DNA from: Patescibacteria group bacterium
GTDB taxonomy: Bacteria > Patescibacteriota > Minisyncoccia > RBG-13-40-8-A
Length of the DNA stretch: 61,213 bases
NCBI GenBank assembly: GCA_018829905.1
Contig: JAHJST010000005.1
Span: forward strand, 1 to 61,213
Direction: 5' to 3'
Shown piece by piece: positions 9,661 through 47,848 of the stretch. Made by a program: the position numbers and the translations under genes. The notes below the pieces were generated by a model that was given only the letters and a program-made list of their open reading frames with translations, searched no databases and had not been told where the DNA came from. Each line of letters starts with the position of its first letter. Within the stretch, counting starts at the first letter, position 1.

Positions 9661-11031
9661 ATGCGAATTAAAAAATTTATTCTATTATTAGGCGATATAA
9701 TCATTTTATATGCCTCTTTAGCAATTGCTCTAACTATTAGATATAGAGAGTTTGATTTAGGAACTTTTCAAAATCATATACTCCCCTTTTCAATTGTTTA
9801 TTTTGTTTGGTTGATTGTGTTTTTTATACACAATTTATATGATTTAGACACTGCTAAAAATAATATTGAGTTTTCTTCTTCTTTAATAAGAGGAATAATT
9901 ATTGGTGGTTTAATTTCAATTGCATTTTTCTATTTAATTCCTGGTTTTGCAATAAATGAATTAACACCAAAAACAAATCTTTTATTAACAATAATAATCT
10001 TTGTCTTTTTATTCTATGGATGGAGATTATTTTTTAATTTCTTAATTGGCGCATTAAAAATAAGAATTAATTTAGCTATTGTTGGATATAATCCACAAGC
10101 AATTGAATTAGCAAAAGAAATAATTAAAAATCCTCAATTGGGATATAGGCTAAAATTAATTGTTAAAAGTGATGATGAACCAATAAAAGATAGATTAGAA
10201 GGAGTAAAAATCATTCAAGGAATAAAAAATCTAAAAGGAATATTAGAACAAGAAAATATATCTACAGCTATTATTGCTCCTGAAGTATATAAATATCCAG
10301 AATTAATTCAAAACTTATTTGAATGTATAAGACATAAAATAGATTTTGTAAATTTATCTGAATTCTATGAAAACGTAACAAGAAAAATTCCTTTAACAGT
10401 TATTAATCAAATTTGGTTTTTAGAAAACATTTCTCAAAGAGATAGAAATGTTTATGAATTAGCTAAAAGATATTTTGATTTTATTTCTGCTTTTATTCTT
10501 TTAATTTGTTCTCTCCCCTTTTGGATTATTATTGCAATAATGGTTAAATTTAGTTCTAATGGTTCTGTATTTTATTCTCAAAAAAGAGTAGGACGAGGAG
10601 GAAAAACATTTAAATTAACTAAATTTAGATCAATGGTTATGGATGCTGAAAAATATGGCCCTAAAATGGCCAAGAAAAACGATAAAAGAGTTACTAAATT
10701 TGGTAGATTTATGAGAAAAACAAGAATGGACGAGCTTCCTCAATTATGGAACGTAATAAAAGGACAAATGAGCTTTGTTGGTCCAAGAGCAGAAAGACCA
10801 GAATTTCATCAAGAATTAAAAGAAAAAATACCTTTTTATCAAGAAAGATATTTAATTAGACCTGGTTTGTCTGGATGGGCACAAATAAAGCATGGATATA
10901 GCTCAACAGTAGAAGATAATTTTGAAAAAGTTCAATATGATCTTTATTATATTAAAAATAGATCATTTATTTTAGACACATCAATTATTTTAAAAACAAT
11001 TAATATTATCCTCAGAGGAGGAGGAAGATAA
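9661..11031 (+). CDS. initiating polyprenyl-phosphate glycosylphosphotransferase (bacterial sugar transferase family, WbaP-like architecture)
   Basis: N-terminal TM bundle plus a central domain. The C-terminal catalytic block reads KFRSMVMDAE...DELPQLWNVIKGQMSFVGPRAERPEF. Confidence 0.85.
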   Translation: MRIKKFILLLGDIIILYASLAIALTIRYREFDLGTFQNHILPFSIVYFVWLIVFFIHNLYDLDTAKNNIEFSSSLIRGIIIGGLISIAFFYLIPGFAINELTPKTNLLLTIIIFVFLFYGWRLFFNFLIGALKIRINLAIVGYNPQAIELAKEIIKNPQLGYRLKLIVKSDDEPIKDRLEGVKIIQGIKNLKGILEQENISTAIIAPEVYKYPELIQNLFECIRHKIDFVNLSEFYENVTRKIPLTVINQIWFLENISQRDRNVYELAKRYFDFISAFILLICSLPFWIIIAIMVKFSSNGSVFYSQKRVGRGGKTFKLTKFRSMVMDAEKYGPKMAKKNDKRVTKFGRFMRKTRMDELPQLWNVIKGQMSFVGPRAERPEFHQELKEKIPFYQERYLIRPGLSGWAQIKHGYSSTVEDNFEKVQYDLYYIKNRSFILDTSIILKTINIILRGGGR

Positions 11032-11041
11032 AATAAAAATT

Positions 11042-11911
11042 ATGAAAAAATCATTATCTGTTGTGGTTCCTGTCCACAACGAAGAAAAAGCGATTGAAAA
11101 TACAATCAATGATCTACAAACAGAATTAGATAAACTTAATTTAGAATACGAAATTATTGTAATTAATGACGCCTCTACAGATAAAACAAAAGAAATTTTA
11201 GAAAATATTCCCAATATAAAAATAATTAATCATACGCAAAACAAAGGATATGGCGCTTCATTAAAAAATGGAATTAAAAATGCAAAATTTGATTTTATAC
11301 TATTTTTTGATGCCGACGGACAACACAAACCAATCTATATTAAGGAAATGATAAAATATATGGATAATTTTGACATGATAAGTGGAGCAAGAATTGGATA
11401 CAAGGGACCAATTATCCGACAACCAGGAAAAAAAGTATTGCAATGGCTAGCCAATTATCTTAGTCAACAAAAAATTCCAGATTTAAATTGTGGATTAAGA
11501 ATTGTTAAAAAAATAGAAATATTAAAATTCACACATCTTCTTTGTGATGGATTTTCTTTTTCTACAACATCTTCTCTGCTTTTTTTGTCTGAAGGACTAT
11601 CTGTTAAATATGTGCCAATCAGAATAAACAAAAGAGAGGGAAAAAGCAAAGTAAGACCAAAGCACGCATTTGATACATTTATATTTATATTACGAGTTAT
11701 TGTCTTAACGTCTCCCCTTAGAATCTTTCTACCAATTAGTATTTTGCTTTTTCTAATAAGCGGAACACTATTAATACAAAATATAATCTACAAAAATATT
11801 GGCGATATAACCATTTTATTATTTATTTCTGCCATATTAATTTTCTTTTTTGGATTGTTGGCTGATCAAATTTCTGCAATTCGTAAAGAGATAAAAAATA
11901 AAAACAATTAA
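11042..11911 (+). CDS. GT2-family glycosyltransferase with C-terminal TM helices (polyprenyl-phosphate sugar synthase-like)
   Basis: LSVVVPVHNEEKAI, VINDASTDKT, FFDADGQH (DXD), and two C-terminal TM helices. Confidence 0.8.
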   Translation: MKKSLSVVVPVHNEEKAIENTINDLQTELDKLNLEYEIIVINDASTDKTKEILENIPNIKIINHTQNKGYGASLKNGIKNAKFDFILFFDADGQHKPIYIKEMIKYMDNFDMISGARIGYKGPIIRQPGKKVLQWLANYLSQQKIPDLNCGLRIVKKIEILKFTHLLCDGFSFSTTSSLLFLSEGLSVKYVPIRINKREGKSKVRPKHAFDTFIFILRVIVLTSPLRIFLPISILLFLISGTLLIQNIIYKNIGDITILLFISAILIFFFGLLADQISAIRKEIKNKNN

Positions 11912-11913
11912 AA

Positions 11914-46408: not shown

Positions 46409-46765
46409 ATGAATGAAAAAGAATTGTTTATAAAAATTGCTGAACAAATTGAAGCAAAGGCTGATGAATTAACATGGATAGATTCTTCTAATGCAACGGC
46501 AGAACATGATGTTCAAGTTTTTATTACTATAATCGATAAAAATATAGTATCTATTGCTAGATTTCCAAACAAAATAAAATATGTTTGTGCCATAAGGATT
46601 GCAAGGTGTAAAAATGTATTTGATTTAATCGCAGAAGAAAAAGATCCATATTTAAAAACGTTTGAAAAAGCATTTTTTGCAGCTTATAATTCTTTTTGGA
46701 AAAAGGGAGAGAAAATGAATTCTAATTTTGTACTTAAGGAAGTTTTAAAAATTCTCAATTCTTAA
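46409..46765 (+). CDS. hypothetical soluble protein (118 aa)
   Basis: Strong promoter, SD and terminator. No motif recognised. Confidence 0.6.
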   Translation: MNEKELFIKIAEQIEAKADELTWIDSSNATAEHDVQVFITIIDKNIVSIARFPNKIKYVCAIRIARCKNVFDLIAEEKDPYLKTFEKAFFAAYNSFWKKGEKMNSNFVLKEVLKILNS

Positions 46766-46775
46766 AGACTAATCC

Positions 46776-46809
46776 AATGGGTAGCCACACTATGGTTACC
46801 CATTTTTTA
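46776..46809. terminator. bidirectional hairpin shared by the 118-aa gene and the convergent GT4 gene
   Basis: AATGGGTAGCC-ACACTAT-GGTTACCCATT followed by TTTTTAT. The GT4 stop codon lies inside the 3' arm. Confidence 0.5.
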
Positions 46810-47848
46810 TTAAATCCTCATATTTTTTAATCATTGTTTGTAAATCAAACTTTTTATTAAATTCAAATCTTTTAGGATTTTTAATAGCTTTAACCAGCGC
46901 ATTAACATTACGAATTTCAACATAATCATTAATAATTTCAGGAATAGCACCAACCTTAGTAGCAACAATTGGAATCTCAGCTTTTAATGCTTCTAATATA
47001 ACCCAAGGAAATCCTTCTTTAACAGAACTTAAAACAAAAACATCAAAAGCTTTTAAATATTTATATGCATCAGAAACAGAACCGAATAATATTACATTAT
47101 TTGGTTTAATTTTTTCTAACATAGGTCTTTCTTCTCCATCGCCAATAATTAAAAAAGTATAATCTTTTAATTCCTTAGCAGATTCAATTAAATATTCTAA
47201 TCCTTTTGCAGGATAAAAATTAGCAATTGTTCCAACAACATAATCAGAATTCTTTAAATTTAAAAACTCTCTTGCTTTTTCTTTAGATAAAAATTCTAAA
47301 TCATTTATTCCATTGTAAATAACTAAATTATCAATACGAGCCTTAATTCCTAAATCAATAGCTTGTTTTTTATCTAAAGAAGAATTATTAATAATATAGT
47401 GTTTCCATGAAGCAGAAAGCTTTTCTATAAAAATATATAGATTCTTTTTCCATTTAGGCCAAGGGTCATTAAATGTCCAACCACCTATACGATAAACAAT
47501 TAATTTAACGCCTAATAATTTACCAGCCAAACTGCCTAAAAAACCAACCTTAGAAGAACATAAAAATAAGATATCTGGTTTTTCTGAACCAATTAATTTT
47601 AAAATCTCAAAAAACCCCAAAAAATCAAAAAAAAGATTAATATTGCGTTTAACATAATTTAAACGTTTAACATTAATCTTTTGTTTTTCCAATGAATCCA
47701 ATAAATCTGAATTTTTATCTTTTTCAATCCCAGCAGCAACTGTAATATTACACCCAGATAAATTAGTACAAAGGGTATAAATAAAACGCTGAGCTCCACC
47801 AAACTCAGACTGGGTAACAAGAAAAAGTATTTTTTTCTCAGTATTCAT
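46796..47848 (-). CDS. GT4-type glycosyltransferase
   Basis: EGFPWVILEALKAEIPIVATKVG. Confidence 0.8.
   Translation of the reverse strand: MNTEKKILFLVTQSEFGGAQRFIYTLCTNLSGCNITVAAGIEKDKNSDLLDSLEKQKINVKRLNYVKRNINLFFDFLGFFEILKLIGSEKPDILFLCSSKVGFLGSLAGKLLGVKLIVYRIGGWTFNDPWPKWKKNLYIFIEKLSASWKHYIINNSSLDKKQAIDLGIKARIDNLVIYNGINDLEFLSKEKAREFLNLKNSDYVVGTIANFYPAKGLEYLIESAKELKDYTFLIIGDGEERPMLEKIKPNNVILFGSVSDAYKYLKAFDVFVLSSVKEGFPWVILEALKAEIPIVATKVGAIPEIINDYVEIRNVNALVKAIKNPKRFEFNKKFDLQTMIKKYEDLIKNG

Follow-up and report, generated by a model that had tools for sequence, protein, structure and literature searches.

A recurring surface-glycan locus with five class-B-type radical SAM genes in uncultured Patescibacteria

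What could five radical SAM enzymes contribute to a single surface glycan? The question is raised by a locus of roughly 40 kb (positions 9661-47848) in an uncultured bacterium of the Patescibacteria (CPR), an ultra-small host from a lineage of genome-reduced episymbionts. The window (the whole analyzed stretch of 61,213 nucleotides) belongs to a MAG contig whose NCBI annotation is generic. An earlier note had described a glycan-assembly locus, and the domain content bears this out. Besides five radical SAM (rSAM) and six methyltransferase genes, Pfam and NCBIfam profiles identify one phosphoglycosyltransferase (PGT), two GT2 and eight GT4 enzymes, Wzx, and an LPG_synthase_TM/flippase-like protein. 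The region also encodes an AsnB-type amidotransferase, an NAD-epimerase, a DegT aminotransferase, a FemAB/GNAT-like protein, a polysaccharide deacetylase, two polytopic membrane proteins, and two Thr/Ser-rich secreted proteins.

Content of the locus

3023-5524, reverse: Wzy_C (O-antigen ligase/polymerase-type) membrane protein with C-terminal TPR (Pfam Wzy_C, 62 bits; TPR)
9661-11031, forward: initiating polyprenyl-phosphate PGT, large WbaP/WcaJ type (Bac_transf, E 4e-68)
11042-11911, forward: GT2_a, polyprenyl-phosphate sugar synthase type (ArnC/GtrB/DPMS/AglJ-like), two C-terminal TM helices
11914-13332, forward: rSAM1, class-B-type radical SAM, 472 aa (MBU2564041.1; CX3CX2C at C205)
13337-14749, forward: rSAM2, HpnJ-related class-B-type radical SAM, 470 aa (MBU2564042.1)
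14746-15936, forward: Fer4-MT, ferredoxin-like N-terminal domain (Cys-rich, 4Fe-4S motif) plus class I methyltransferase (Pfam Fer4/Fer4_6, Methyltransf_11)
15953-16714, forward: MT11_a, class I methyltransferase (Pfam Methyltransf_11), conserved partner just upstream of GT2_b
16678-17691, forward: GT2_b, membrane GT2 (Glyco_transf_21-like), three C-terminal TM segments
17695-18882, forward: GT4_a glycosyltransferase (Pfam)
18893-19756, forward: FkbM-family methyltransferase (PF05050, E 4e-20)
19769-20641, forward: MT11_b, class I methyltransferase (Pfam Methyltransf_11)
20634-21605, forward: LPGsynTM, LPG_synthase_TM/flippase-like polytopic membrane protein (PF03706, E 2.5e-47; 7 TM)
21598-23064, forward: rSAM3, class-B-type radical SAM, 488 aa (MBU2564050.1, annotated 23 aa shorter)
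23080-24678, reverse: predicted GT-C-fold glycosyltransferase, 532 aa (formerly "hypothetical protein KKA23_00485")
24677-25927, forward: Wzx-type flippase (Pfam Polysacc_synt; at least 8 TM segments)
25949-26386, reverse: short (145 aa) Methyltransf_11 protein (Pfam)
26388-27473, reverse: GT4_b glycosyltransferase (Pfam), 4-nt overlap with rSAM4
27470-28834, reverse: rSAM4, class-B-type radical SAM, 454 aa (MBU2564055.1)
28869-29627, reverse: MT11_c, class I methyltransferase (Pfam Methyltransf_11)
29593-31299, reverse: AsnB-type glutamine amidotransferase, sugar-acid amidation type (Pfam, NCBIfam)
31386-33653, reverse: two Thr/Ser/Gly-rich secreted proteins, 431 and 308 aa (N-terminal signal/TM segment, amino-acid composition)
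33853-35931, reverse: 12-TM membrane protein with C-terminal TPR repeats (Pfam, TM prediction)
35932-37050, reverse: GT4_c glycosyltransferase (Pfam), 4-nt overlap with rSAM5
37047-38456, reverse: rSAM5, class-B-type radical SAM, 469 aa (MBU2564062.1)
38453-39520, 39483-40574, 41446-42522 and 42503-43639, reverse: four GT4 glycosyltransferases (Pfam)
40571-41449, reverse: NAD-dependent epimerase/dehydratase (Pfam)
43638-44654, forward: DegT/DnrJ/EryC1-type sugar aminotransferase (Pfam, NCBIfam)
44634-45572, reverse: FemAB/GNAT-like acyl/aminoacyl transferase (Pfam, NCBIfam)
45547-46356, reverse: polysaccharide deacetylase (Pfam, NCBIfam)
46796-47848, reverse: GT4_h glycosyltransferase, right-hand end of the region (Pfam)

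The PGT scores 381.6 against TIGR03025 (cutoff 295.55), and the FkbM protein 115.5 against TIGR01444 (cutoff 37.7). The six methyltransferases counted previously were all recovered: Fer4-MT (14746), FkbM (18893), and Methyltransf_11 proteins at 15953, 19769, 25949 and 28869. Fer4-MT, conserved in related locus L004, carries CxxCxxCxxxCP at residue 104 and further Cys clusters; its Fer4 domain could plausibly serve as a dedicated electron donor. MT11_a has orthologues in five related loci (L002, L004, L005, L089, L091). The Wzy_C-TPR protein, with about 11 predicted TM segments, is encoded outside the region first noted but probably belongs to the functional locus, since its orthologue lies immediately beside the PGT gene, in divergent orientation, in related loci L004, L091 and L092. 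The 12-TM-TPR protein is a candidate polymerase, ligase or oligosaccharyltransferase. The Thr/Ser/Gly-rich proteins, which match no Pfam or NCBIfam family, are candidate glycosylation substrates or surface proteins.

These components are reminiscent of Gram-positive S-layer glycan (slg) and O-antigen Wzx/Wzy loci, which share the WbaP-type PGT, multiple GT4 enzymes, Wzx, and a Wzy_C-domain protein, as well as O-methyltransferases, nucleotide-sugar aminotransferase and epimerase genes, and nearby surface proteins. To our knowledge, slg and O-antigen Wzx/Wzy loci contain no radical SAM genes, and literature searches on radical SAM together with O-antigen, glycosyltransferase or CPR yielded no description of such genes in glycan loci.

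A recurring polyprenyl-phosphate-sugar nucleus

GT2_a matches ArnC (2e-15), DPMS (5mlz) and GtrB (5ekp) in the PDB and the AglJ/PgfS/ArnC/PpgS family models. LPGsynTM, of the MprF-flippase-domain family, scores 93.9 against TIGR00374 (cutoff 43.2), matches HpnL weakly, and has no solved-structure match by PDB sequence comparison; by family analogy, it is a candidate flippase-like protein. The 532-aa protein has no Pfam or NCBIfam match, and its AlphaFold2 model (pLDDT 91.8) retrieves only GT-C enzymes as top Foldseek matches (STT3, AglB, PglB, ALG12, ArnT). This previously unannotated protein is, by its modeled fold, a GT-C transferase; its homologues with source-given names are all from Patescibacteria/Parcubacteria, a few carrying PMT_2/GT39. 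Judging from profiles and this model, the genes of the conserved nucleus form a polyprenyl-phosphate-sugar branch alongside a Wzx/Wzy-type pathway. The earlier view that the locus maps to no known pathway gives way to a GT2_a, flippase-like and GT-C system, with rSAM2 as a relative of HpnJ.

Three-component glycosylation systems that use polyprenyl-phosphate sugars (GtrA/GtrB/GtrV, ArnC/ArnEF/ArnT and CsbB/GtcA/YfhO) likewise unite a GT2 bearing C-terminal TM helices with a flippase-like protein and a GT-C, the trio that is co-conserved here. However, the candidate flippase belongs to the MprF/LPG_synthase_TM type, unlike GtrA or ArnEF, and one to four radical SAM and two to three methyltransferase genes are inserted between synthase and flippase, an arrangement for which we found no precedent.

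The module GT2_a-rSAM1(x1-3)-rSAM2-MT-MT-GT2_b-(GT4)-LPGsynTM-rSAM3-GT-C-Wzx occurs in at least seven independent contigs, the relatives retrieved being metagenomes or MAGs throughout. In every related locus, GT2_b stands beside rSAM2 and the accompanying methyltransferases, and rSAM3 orthologues follow LPGsynTM in L004 and L092. A chimeric assembly was rejected because the synteny is seen in independent contigs. Nor are five rSAM genes in one locus unique to this genome: uncultured relatives have three to six of the class-B type per ~21 kb. This recurrence makes the feature more real and the window less singular.

Domain fusions join the same activities. Four rSAM2 homologues (P0015, P0017, P0020, P0111) are fused with class I methyltransferases, and elsewhere a single uninterrupted 1879-aa ORF (P0365) reads B12-rSAM - MT - GT2 - MT - GT2 - B12-rSAM; the next ORF, of at least 1589 aa, has one MT-like and three GT4-like matches. 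A Nanoarchaeota rSAM1 homologue likewise lies amid UDP-Glc dehydrogenase, MT, GT2, Wzx and DegT genes.

The five radical SAM enzymes

The five ORFs are present with the coordinates, strands and lengths first reported, and their Cys motifs were found letter for letter. The proposed class-B architecture is also upheld: all five combine an N-terminal B12-binding-type Rossmann domain (PF02310, E 1e-7 to 1e-21) with a radical SAM core (PF04055, E 1e-17 to 4e-27; rSAM4, 1.5e-25), rSAM4 falling marginally below the PF02310 gathering cutoff (31.9 versus 32.1 bits) and the other four passing. Their pairwise identities are 30-36%, and by sequence they are old paralogues. All are predicted to be soluble, with zero TM segments, whereas GT2_a, GT2_b, LPGsynTM and GT-C are membrane proteins by the same prediction.

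Translational coupling was also suggested earlier, and the coordinates confirm that the genes are tightly coupled, with gaps or overlaps of -8 to +4 nt: GT2_a to rSAM1, +2; rSAM1 to rSAM2, +4; rSAM2 to Fer4-MT, -4; LPGsynTM to rSAM3, -8; rSAM4 to GT4_b, -4; and -4 on both sides of rSAM5, between two GT4 genes. The -8 overlap relies on a GTG start at 21598, the NCBI form being 465 aa; the 488-aa form regains the N-terminal "M-K-I-L-L-x-N-P" strand common to all five paralogues.

rSAM2 matches the HpnJ model TIGR03471 end to end (343.7 bits, cutoff 577.6; E 2e-102) and an NJ tree puts it in one group with authentic HpnJ proteins (800 and 757 bits); this sequence evidence places it in an HpnJ-related clade. 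Both have a "C-T-F-C-L-W-P-x-T" segment and, presumably, a lipid-linked amino sugar as substrate class, and the nearby membrane GT2 and LPG_synthase_TM-family protein recall the HpnI/HpnL context. Yet rSAM2 shares only ~34% identity with Acidobacteria HpnJ, and a one-residue insertion makes its cluster motif a non-canonical CX4CX2C (C214-AWGK-C219-TF-C222), invariant in 120/120 homologues, where true HpnJ has CX3CX2C; the earlier note was silent on TARGCAWGKCTFC being CX4CX2C rather than CX3CX2C. Moreover, the setting is a polysaccharide locus in a window without hopanoid genes, and the deacetylase (Polysacc_deac_1) is of a family that we take to differ from HpnK. The AlphaFold2 model of rSAM2 (pLDDT 84.8) retrieves TsrM, OxsB, MgmA, AprD4 and TokK with Foldseek.

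None of the five reaches the cutoff of any curated NCBIfam family tested (HpnJ, BchE, PhpK, AprD4, ApyD and others); their scores stay far short of every equivalog, which leaves the paralogues outside characterized families. The best solved-structure sequence matches have E values of only 1e-13 to 1e-26. Because all five lie below every curated cutoff, the reaction types of these subfamilies are extrapolations. rSAM1, whose orthologue clade spans CPR and DPANN, has BchE as its top model (248 bits, cutoff 481), and rSAM5 has homologues of at least 90% identity in Ca. Nealsonbacteria.

Among solved structures in the PDB, AprD4 (6fd2) is the closest in sequence to rSAM1 (2e-26), rSAM5 (1e-21) and rSAM4 (2e-20) and gives the top TM-score with the rSAM2 model (0.71-0.73); AprD4 and ArsL have a class-B-like architecture with Rossmann-like N-terminal domains but bind no cobalamin (PMC12931638). 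The five might accordingly not be cobalamin-dependent methylases but perform 5'-deoxyadenosyl radical chemistry on sugars (AprD4-like 1,2-diol dehydration/deoxygenation, epimerization, oxidation or rearrangement), all methyl groups of the product then coming from the six conventional methyltransferases. The sub-cutoff B12 domain of rSAM4 fits such chemistry, and as far as we know, Patescibacteria genomes are not expected to encode cobalamin synthesis; the window holds neither a cobalamin riboswitch nor a transporter. Against this, the likeness to AprD4 does not extend beyond the rSAM barrel (residues ~165-400), scores against the NCBIfam AprD4 model are far too low (38-128 bits, cutoff 500), the N-terminal domain of rSAM1 aligns with the cobalamin domain of TsrM instead, and four of the five pass PF02310. 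We regard cobalamin-free chemistry in all five as rather unlikely; from sequence, they are candidate cobalamin enzymes.

Modification of a lipid (the polyprenol carrier, a scavenged membrane lipid, or the anchor of a glycolipid) instead of the sugars would have parallels in HpnP/HpnR, Tes/GDGT-MAS and ladderane-associated class-B enzymes. All five match TIGR04072, "lipid biosynthesis B12-binding/radical SAM," moderately (117-156 bits), as they do HpnJ/HpnR; GT2_b is of a lipid-glycosylating type, and an MprF-type lipid-flippase domain occurs in the locus. However, the TIGR04072 cutoff of 360 is missed more than twofold, the window lacks lipid-synthesis genes, and the Rosetta-stone fusions link rSAM to GT2 and methyltransferase domains, with no lipid enzymes. 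HpnJ, the nearest relative, targets the sugar head group, in a ring contraction of hopanoid-linked (lipid-linked) glucosamine with genetic support only (PMC13459092). A lipid target thus seems improbable.

It is more doubtful still, to the point of being very improbable, that some of the enzymes, especially rSAM4 and rSAM5, are RiPP-like peptide/protein C-methyltransferases acting on the Thr/Ser-rich secreted or other surface proteins. The genes for those two secreted proteins do lie between rSAM4 and rSAM5, and among NCBIfam models rSAM5 scores highest with the RiPP enzyme ApyD (215.6 bits) and reaches 138 bits against the RiPP C-methyltransferase TIGR03975; both scores fall short of their cutoffs (750 and 282). 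Moreover, rSAM4 and rSAM5 overlap GT4 genes, neither a precursor-peptide-like small ORF nor a RiPP recognition element was seen, and the secreted proteins are large, with signal peptides.

A possible pathway

The reading that we favor, and consider likely, is that this locus makes the bacterium's main cell-surface glycoconjugate by two membrane-linked routes and that the rSAM enzymes tailor its lipid-linked sugars. The first, of Wzx/Wzy type, would assemble an oligosaccharide on polyprenyl diphosphate; it would be initiated by the PGT and would include the eight GT4 enzymes, Wzx, and both TPR-bearing membrane proteins (Wzy_C-TPR and 12-TM-TPR), with the epimerase, DegT, AsnB, FemAB/GNAT-like and deacetylase proteins providing nucleotide-sugar tailoring. 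In the second, GT2_a would put a sugar onto polyprenyl phosphate, LPGsynTM would carry this polyprenyl-monophosphate-sugar over the membrane, and the GT-C transferase would join the sugar to an acceptor outside the cell.

The five rSAM enzymes and six SAM methyltransferases would work in the cytoplasm on lipid-linked (or nascent) sugars, operon position pairing each rSAM with the glycosyltransferase that may supply or consume its substrate. Most likely, rSAM2 would rearrange a lipid-linked (amino)sugar by HpnJ-like radical chemistry, for example by contracting its ring or forming a carbocycle, and rSAM1 and rSAM3-5 would C-methylate unactivated carbons or carry out an AprD4-like dehydration/deoxygenation. 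The class-B architecture spans ring contraction (HpnJ, OxsB) and cyclization (BchE). Of the product proposed in the earlier note, a radical-tailored glycan or glycolipid remains the most economical reading, while "heavily C-methylated" does not follow from an architecture with other chemistries.

Sugar-tailoring class-B enzymes are known from natural-product pathways (GenK, GenD1, Fms7, MoeK5), as is AprD4 (PMC12931638). They share with the present enzymes the B12-type domain, the rSAM barrel (a fold match confirmed for rSAM2) and a sugar context, sometimes lipid-linked. Whereas they act singly on actinomycete secondary metabolites, five divergent paralogues occur here in a primary surface-glycan locus. 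Together with six methyltransferases in a recurring layout, they point to a sugar chemistry undescribed for any surface glycan.

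Gene content of the locus

Between 9661 and 47848, an ORF listing combined with Pfam and NCBIfam scans bears out the gene inventory claimed in the earlier note. In a window whose G+C content is about 27%, this region encodes one large WbaP/WcaJ-type phosphoglycosyltransferase (PGT; TIGR03025, 381.6 bits against a cutoff of 295.55), two GT2 and eight GT4 glycosyltransferases, a Wzx flippase (Polysacc_synt, 70 bits), and a "flippase-like" LPG_synthase_TM protein. Six SAM methyltransferases (one ferredoxin-like fusion, one FkbM protein, and four Methyltransf_11 proteins, one of them 145 aa long) are accompanied by an AsnB amidotransferase, an epimerase, a DegT aminotransferase, a FemAB/GNAT-like protein, and a polysaccharide deacetylase. 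Five proteins of 454 to 488 aa, rSAM1 to rSAM5, carry a B12-binding-type domain N-terminal to a radical SAM core, and the cysteine motifs previously quoted for them match the sequence exactly. With the PGT, Wzx, a Wzy_C-type polymerase/ligase (62 bits, in the protein at 3023-5524), and serial glycosyltransferases, the components of a Wzx/Wzy-dependent surface polysaccharide locus are present. The main features are as follows.

9661-11031 (+), initiating PGT
11042-11911 (+), GT2_a, a GT2 glycosyltransferase
11914 (+), rSAM1 (MBU2564041)
13337-14749 (+), rSAM2 (MBU2564042)
14746-15936 (+), Fer4-MT, a ferredoxin-like/methyltransferase fusion
16678-17691 (+), GT2_b, the second GT2 glycosyltransferase
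20634-21605 (+), LPG_synthase_TM/flippase-like protein
21598 (+), rSAM3 (MBU2564050)
23080-24678 (-), 532-aa protein deposited as "hypothetical protein KKA23_00485"
27470 (-), rSAM4 (MBU2564055)
37047 (-), rSAM5 (MBU2564062)

The rSAM genes had been described as tightly coupled to their neighbors, and the junctions indeed range from +4 to -8 nt at every one of them. The deposited rSAM3 protein, MBU2564050.1, is 23 residues shorter than the form that starts at the GTG at 21598; since the longer form regains an N-terminal strand conserved in the five paralogues, the deposited sequence is probably truncated at its N terminus. Fer4-MT, which overlaps rSAM2 by 4 nt, has a Cys-rich ferredoxin-like N-terminal domain with the motifs CxxC...CxxC, Cx4Cx3Cx3C, and CxxCxxCxxxCP. 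An Rfam scan found no cobalamin riboswitch in the window, and no tRNA was found there.

Genes for Thr/Ser/Gly/Ala-rich secreted proteins lie inside the locus and just past it (31386-33653 and 48409-53510, both on the minus strand), where the local G+C content rises to 0.34-0.39. Two proteins, of 1217 and 441 aa, share the N-terminal motif (I/V)DGD...Y(I/V)(I/V)KL(V/I)GDKKFKRL(V/I)LNP. These secreted proteins probably belong to the cell surface or S-layer and may be acceptors of the glycan. Their genes are flanked by an ECF sigma factor with a DUF5667 partner (53719-55165, minus strand) and by a gene for a 1031-aa secreted protein with lamin-tail-domain and beta-helix regions (57164-60259, minus strand). 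A sixth radical SAM gene (1212-2624, minus strand) overlaps a short class I tRNA-synthetase-like ORF (427-1215) by 4 nt and scores 282 bits on a FibroRumin-like model whose cutoff is 400. Being of the SPASM peptide-maturase type and separated from the locus, it was dropped as a member of the glycan system.

A predicted polyprenyl-phosphate-sugar branch and its relatives

The conserved nucleus of the locus is a polyprenyl-phosphate-sugar branch. GT2_a, with two predicted C-terminal transmembrane helices, finds its best solved-structure matches in ArnC, Dol-P-Man synthase (DPMS), and GtrB, and its best NCBIfam matches, all under their cutoffs, in AglJ, PgfS, ArnC, and PpgS; it supplies the GT2 polyprenyl-phosphate-sugar synthase of a three-component glycosylation system. 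The search for a dedicated flippase gave no GtrA or ArnE/F homologue, and the LPG_synthase_TM protein (TIGR00374, 93.9 bits, over the 43.2 cutoff; no solved-structure match) sits in that position. The 532-aa protein KKA23_00485, which has no match in Pfam or NCBIfam, is a GT-C glycosyltransferase by its predicted fold: in a confident AlphaFold2 model (pLDDT, 91.8; pTM, 0.90), the top 24 Foldseek matches in the PDB are all GT-C enzymes, namely STT3, AglB, PglB, ALG12, ArnT, ALG9, and DPY19. Its homologues, where the source is named, all come from Patescibacteria/Parcubacteria metagenome-assembled genomes; most lack a Pfam annotation, and a few carry PMT_2. The GT-C component of a three-component system is thus also present, and GT2_a, the flippase-like protein, and the GT-C transferase would together reproduce the logic of the GtrABV and ArnC/EF/T systems.

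The gene order recurs in related contigs, where a Wzy_C-TPR gene diverges from the PGT gene, followed by GT2_a, rSAM1 (one to three copies), rSAM2, two methyltransferases, GT2_b, sometimes a GT4, the LPG_synthase_TM protein, rSAM3, the GT-C transferase on the opposite strand, and Wzx. A minimal invariant core, GT2_a-rSAM2-methyltransferase-GT2_b, is found even in a Saccharibacteria genome (L005). This synteny in independent samples excludes a chimeric contig or an assembly artifact. Fer4-MT is kept in one relative (L004), and plain methyltransferases stand in its place in two others (L002 and L091). In the window, the stretch between Wzy_C-TPR and PGT (5567-9482) holds an alpha/beta hydrolase, a HAD protein, a Band 7 protein, a small methyltransferase-like protein, and others; since L004, L091, and L092 have the two genes side by side and divergent, this block appears to have been inserted.

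A single-query scan of metagenome contigs with rSAM2 yielded only six short loci, unsuitable for counting rSAM genes per locus, and counts were therefore taken per stretch of roughly 21 kb around long-contig homologues. There are six class-B-type rSAM genes in L091, six in L002 (one cut by the locus end) together with a SPASM rSAM, at least four in L092, four in L093, three in L095 together with a non-B12 rSAM, and three within the ±10 kb read of L004, which is fully syntenic with the window. With several rSAMs per stretch in these relatives, the window represents a locus type that is common across the lineage, not an isolated curiosity. Two related loci, L002 (7117-9960) and L091 (5708-9617), have tandem arrays of two or three divergent rSAM1-like genes where the window has a single copy, which suggests that the tailoring set is diversifying rapidly between strains. 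The rSAM1 family also reaches DPANN archaea, and a Nanoarchaeota homologue lies amid UDP-glucose dehydrogenase, methyltransferase, GT2, Wzx, and DegT genes.

Family placement and chemistry of the radical SAM enzymes

The radical SAM core is recognized in all five proteins (PF04055, E values of 1e-17 to 4e-27), with the canonical CX3CX2C motif in rSAM1, rSAM3, rSAM4, and rSAM5 and a variant CX4CX2C in rSAM2. The B12-binding-type domain (PF02310; cutoff, 32.1 bits) scores 73.6 in rSAM1, 39.3 in rSAM2, 77.2 in rSAM3, and 65.3 in rSAM5; at 31.9 bits, rSAM4 falls marginally short. Pairwise identity is only 30 to 36%, and the five are therefore ancient paralogues, not recent duplicates. None reaches a curated NCBIfam class-B cutoff, the families tested being HpnJ, BchE, PhpK, ApyD, BzaD, ladderane-lipid, HpnR, KedN5, TsrM, MgmA, and AprD4. 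In bits over cutoff, rSAM1 scores 248/481 on BchE and 128/500 on AprD4, rSAM5 215/481 on BchE and 216/750 on ApyD, rSAM3 136/251 on TIGR04013, and rSAM4 188/578 on HpnJ.

Solved-structure matches are remote (E values of 1e-13 to 1e-26) and comprise AprD4, MgmA/QCMT (9ccb), TsrM, CysS, TokK, and OxsB. The AlphaFold model of rSAM2 (pLDDT, 84.8) superposes on this set with TM scores of 0.6 to 0.73 (0.60 to 0.68 for TsrM, OxsB, MgmA, CysS, and TokK) and, as a prediction, confirms a two-domain class-B architecture. This architecture is no proof of cobalamin use, since class-B enzymes bind the cofactor base-off/His-off, without a protein ligand or a diagnostic motif, and AprD4 and ArsL resemble them but bind no cobalamin (PMC12931638, a 2026 review). 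Some or all of the paralogues could accordingly perform cobalamin-independent, AprD4-like chemistry, which we consider rather unlikely and which would be compatible with our main model. The likeness to AprD4 is confined to the barrel, and rSAM1 aligns through its N-terminal domain with the cobalamin domain of TsrM; judged from these alignments, cobalamin dependence is likely but unproven. At the lower-axial positions, in an uncertain alignment, W76 of TokK corresponds to P78 of rSAM1 and R69 of TsrM to an insertion. Methylation is only one among several possible chemistries for these enzymes.

rSAM2 stands closest to HpnJ, scoring 343.7 bits on TIGR03471 (cutoff, 577.6) against 142 to 226 bits for the other four, and a neighbor-joining tree places it and its orthologues in a superclade with HpnJ. 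As a control, a scan of GTDB genomes seeded with the rSAM2 family alignment was dominated by Acidobacteriota HpnJ (hundreds of loci, at 33 to 35% identity) and returned few CPR loci; two Acidobacteria representatives, at 800 and 757 bits on the HpnJ model, are thereby bona fide HpnJ. Relatives in a glycosyltransferase context from Bathyarchaeota, Thermoplasmatales, Pelotomaculum, Saganbacteria, and Chloroflexota have intermediate scores (366 to 519 bits). A common CTFCLWPxT pattern had suggested that HpnJ shares the CX4CX2C spacing, but this was ruled out, as true HpnJ sequences have the canonical CX3CX2C (G-C-P-A-L-C-T-F-C). The one-residue insertion, C-x-W-(G/N)-(K/Q/R)-C-x-F-C, occurs in rSAM2 (residues 214-222) and in all 120 of its 120 closest database homologues. 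In the rSAM2 model, confidence is low only in the cluster loop (residues 200-218).

HpnJ is genetically required for converting a hopanoid-linked glucosamine into a cyclitol ether, for which a radical ring contraction has been proposed, and archaeal calditol synthase is thought to carry out an analogous reaction (PMC13459092). By analogy with this link, we hypothesize that rSAM2 may rearrange a lipid-linked amino sugar by radical chemistry. That the rSAMs modify the lipid rather than the sugar seems improbable to us. A scan of 48 window ORFs turned up none of the hopanoid genes shc, hpnH, hpnG, hpnI, and hpnK. A protein from "Ca. Woesebacteria" UBA5073 (L017, 1855-3393) scores 594.6 bits, just over the HpnJ equivalog cutoff, and lies beside a GT2, a methyltransferase, and a non-B12 radical SAM-like gene instead of hopanoid genes; an automatic annotation as HpnJ would probably be wrong, as probably are the "HpnJ" or "BchE" names at JGI on proteins of these rSAM families.

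Natural fusions, proposed pathway, and biological meaning

Several proteins join a class I methyltransferase to an rSAM2 homologue, and an exhaustive HMMER search found megaproteins with two to five class-B modules among the rSAM5 homologues. The same search led to the 1879-aa protein P0365 (L096, 2649-8288), which lies on an unrelated contig with a G+C content of 54.5% and has the order B12-rSAM, methyltransferase, GT2, methyltransferase, GT2, B12-rSAM and no transmembrane segments. Read in code 11, its 5640-nt ORF is free of internal stops, which excludes a gene-calling artifact. Among the computational evidence, this fusion speaks most strongly for one glycan intermediate shared by rSAM, methyltransferase, and glycosyltransferase activities. 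Together with the next ORF (8596-13362), which encodes at least 1589 aa with one methyltransferase-like and three GT4-like matches, P0365 suggests a soluble "glycan megasynthase." The giant proteins P0335 (2331 aa), P0340 (2096 aa), P0346, and P0394 carry three to five tandem class-B rSAM modules, and P0335 additionally bears an N-terminal SPASM rSAM.

We propose that the locus serves two routes. In one, the PGT, the eight GT4 enzymes, the nucleotide-sugar enzymes, Wzx, Wzy_C-TPR, and a 12-TM-TPR protein would build an oligosaccharide on polyprenyl diphosphate. In the other, GT2_a, rSAM1 and rSAM2, the methyltransferases, GT2_b, the LPG_synthase_TM protein, rSAM3, and the GT-C transferase would produce a heavily tailored polyprenyl-phosphate sugar, to be flipped and then transferred outside the cell. 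Because predictions make the rSAMs soluble proteins, we propose that they act on the cytoplasmic face, after synthesis of the lipid-linked sugar and before flipping. rSAM4 and rSAM5, each translationally coupled to GT4 genes, would probably tailor individual residues of the first route's oligosaccharide during assembly; that these two instead modify peptides or proteins we regard as very improbable. Electrons may come from the Fer4 domain of the methyltransferase beside rSAM2, which is perhaps dedicated to reducing the rSAM clusters. The Thr/Ser-rich secreted proteins at 31386-33653 and 49857-53510 are candidate acceptors; if they do accept the glycan, the system would resemble S-layer glycan (slg) loci.

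A bolder reading, which we judge less likely than not, is that Patescibacteria, some DPANN archaea, Chloroflexota, and others make undescribed "radical-tailored" surface glycans. Batteries of class-B rSAMs would rearrange and C-alkylate polyprenyl-phosphate sugars before export, and among them the CX4CX2C HpnJ-like enzyme would make a sugar that is carbocyclic (cyclitol-type) or has its ring rearranged in another way. Glycan loci, three-component polyprenyl-phosphate-sugar systems, and class-B rSAMs acting singly on antibiotic-pathway sugars or hopanoid head groups are already known. No description of multi-rSAM glycan loci was found in the open-access literature searched. Nor does that literature appear to describe genome-reduced Patescibacteria whose primary surface-glycan locus holds batteries of divergent class-B rSAMs, together with the CX4CX2C HpnJ-like clade and natural rSAM-methyltransferase-glycosyltransferase fusions.

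Five uncharacterized class-B rSAM subfamilies thereby gain a defined genomic substrate context, and the fusion enzymes could be expressed as self-contained pathways. Patescibacteria have genomes of roughly 1 Mb and live attached to other cells, and surface display is central to host recognition. Here, five radical SAM enzymes, possibly cobalamin requiring, are given over to tailoring the surface glycan, in a layout kept across relatives. From this we predict unusual sugar structures, C-methylated, deoxygenated, or carbocyclic, which are undescribed for any bacterial surface polymer. If the bolder reading is true, the radical-tailored glycan would resist glycosidases, and the episymbiont's surface would rely on cobalamin from its host or community.
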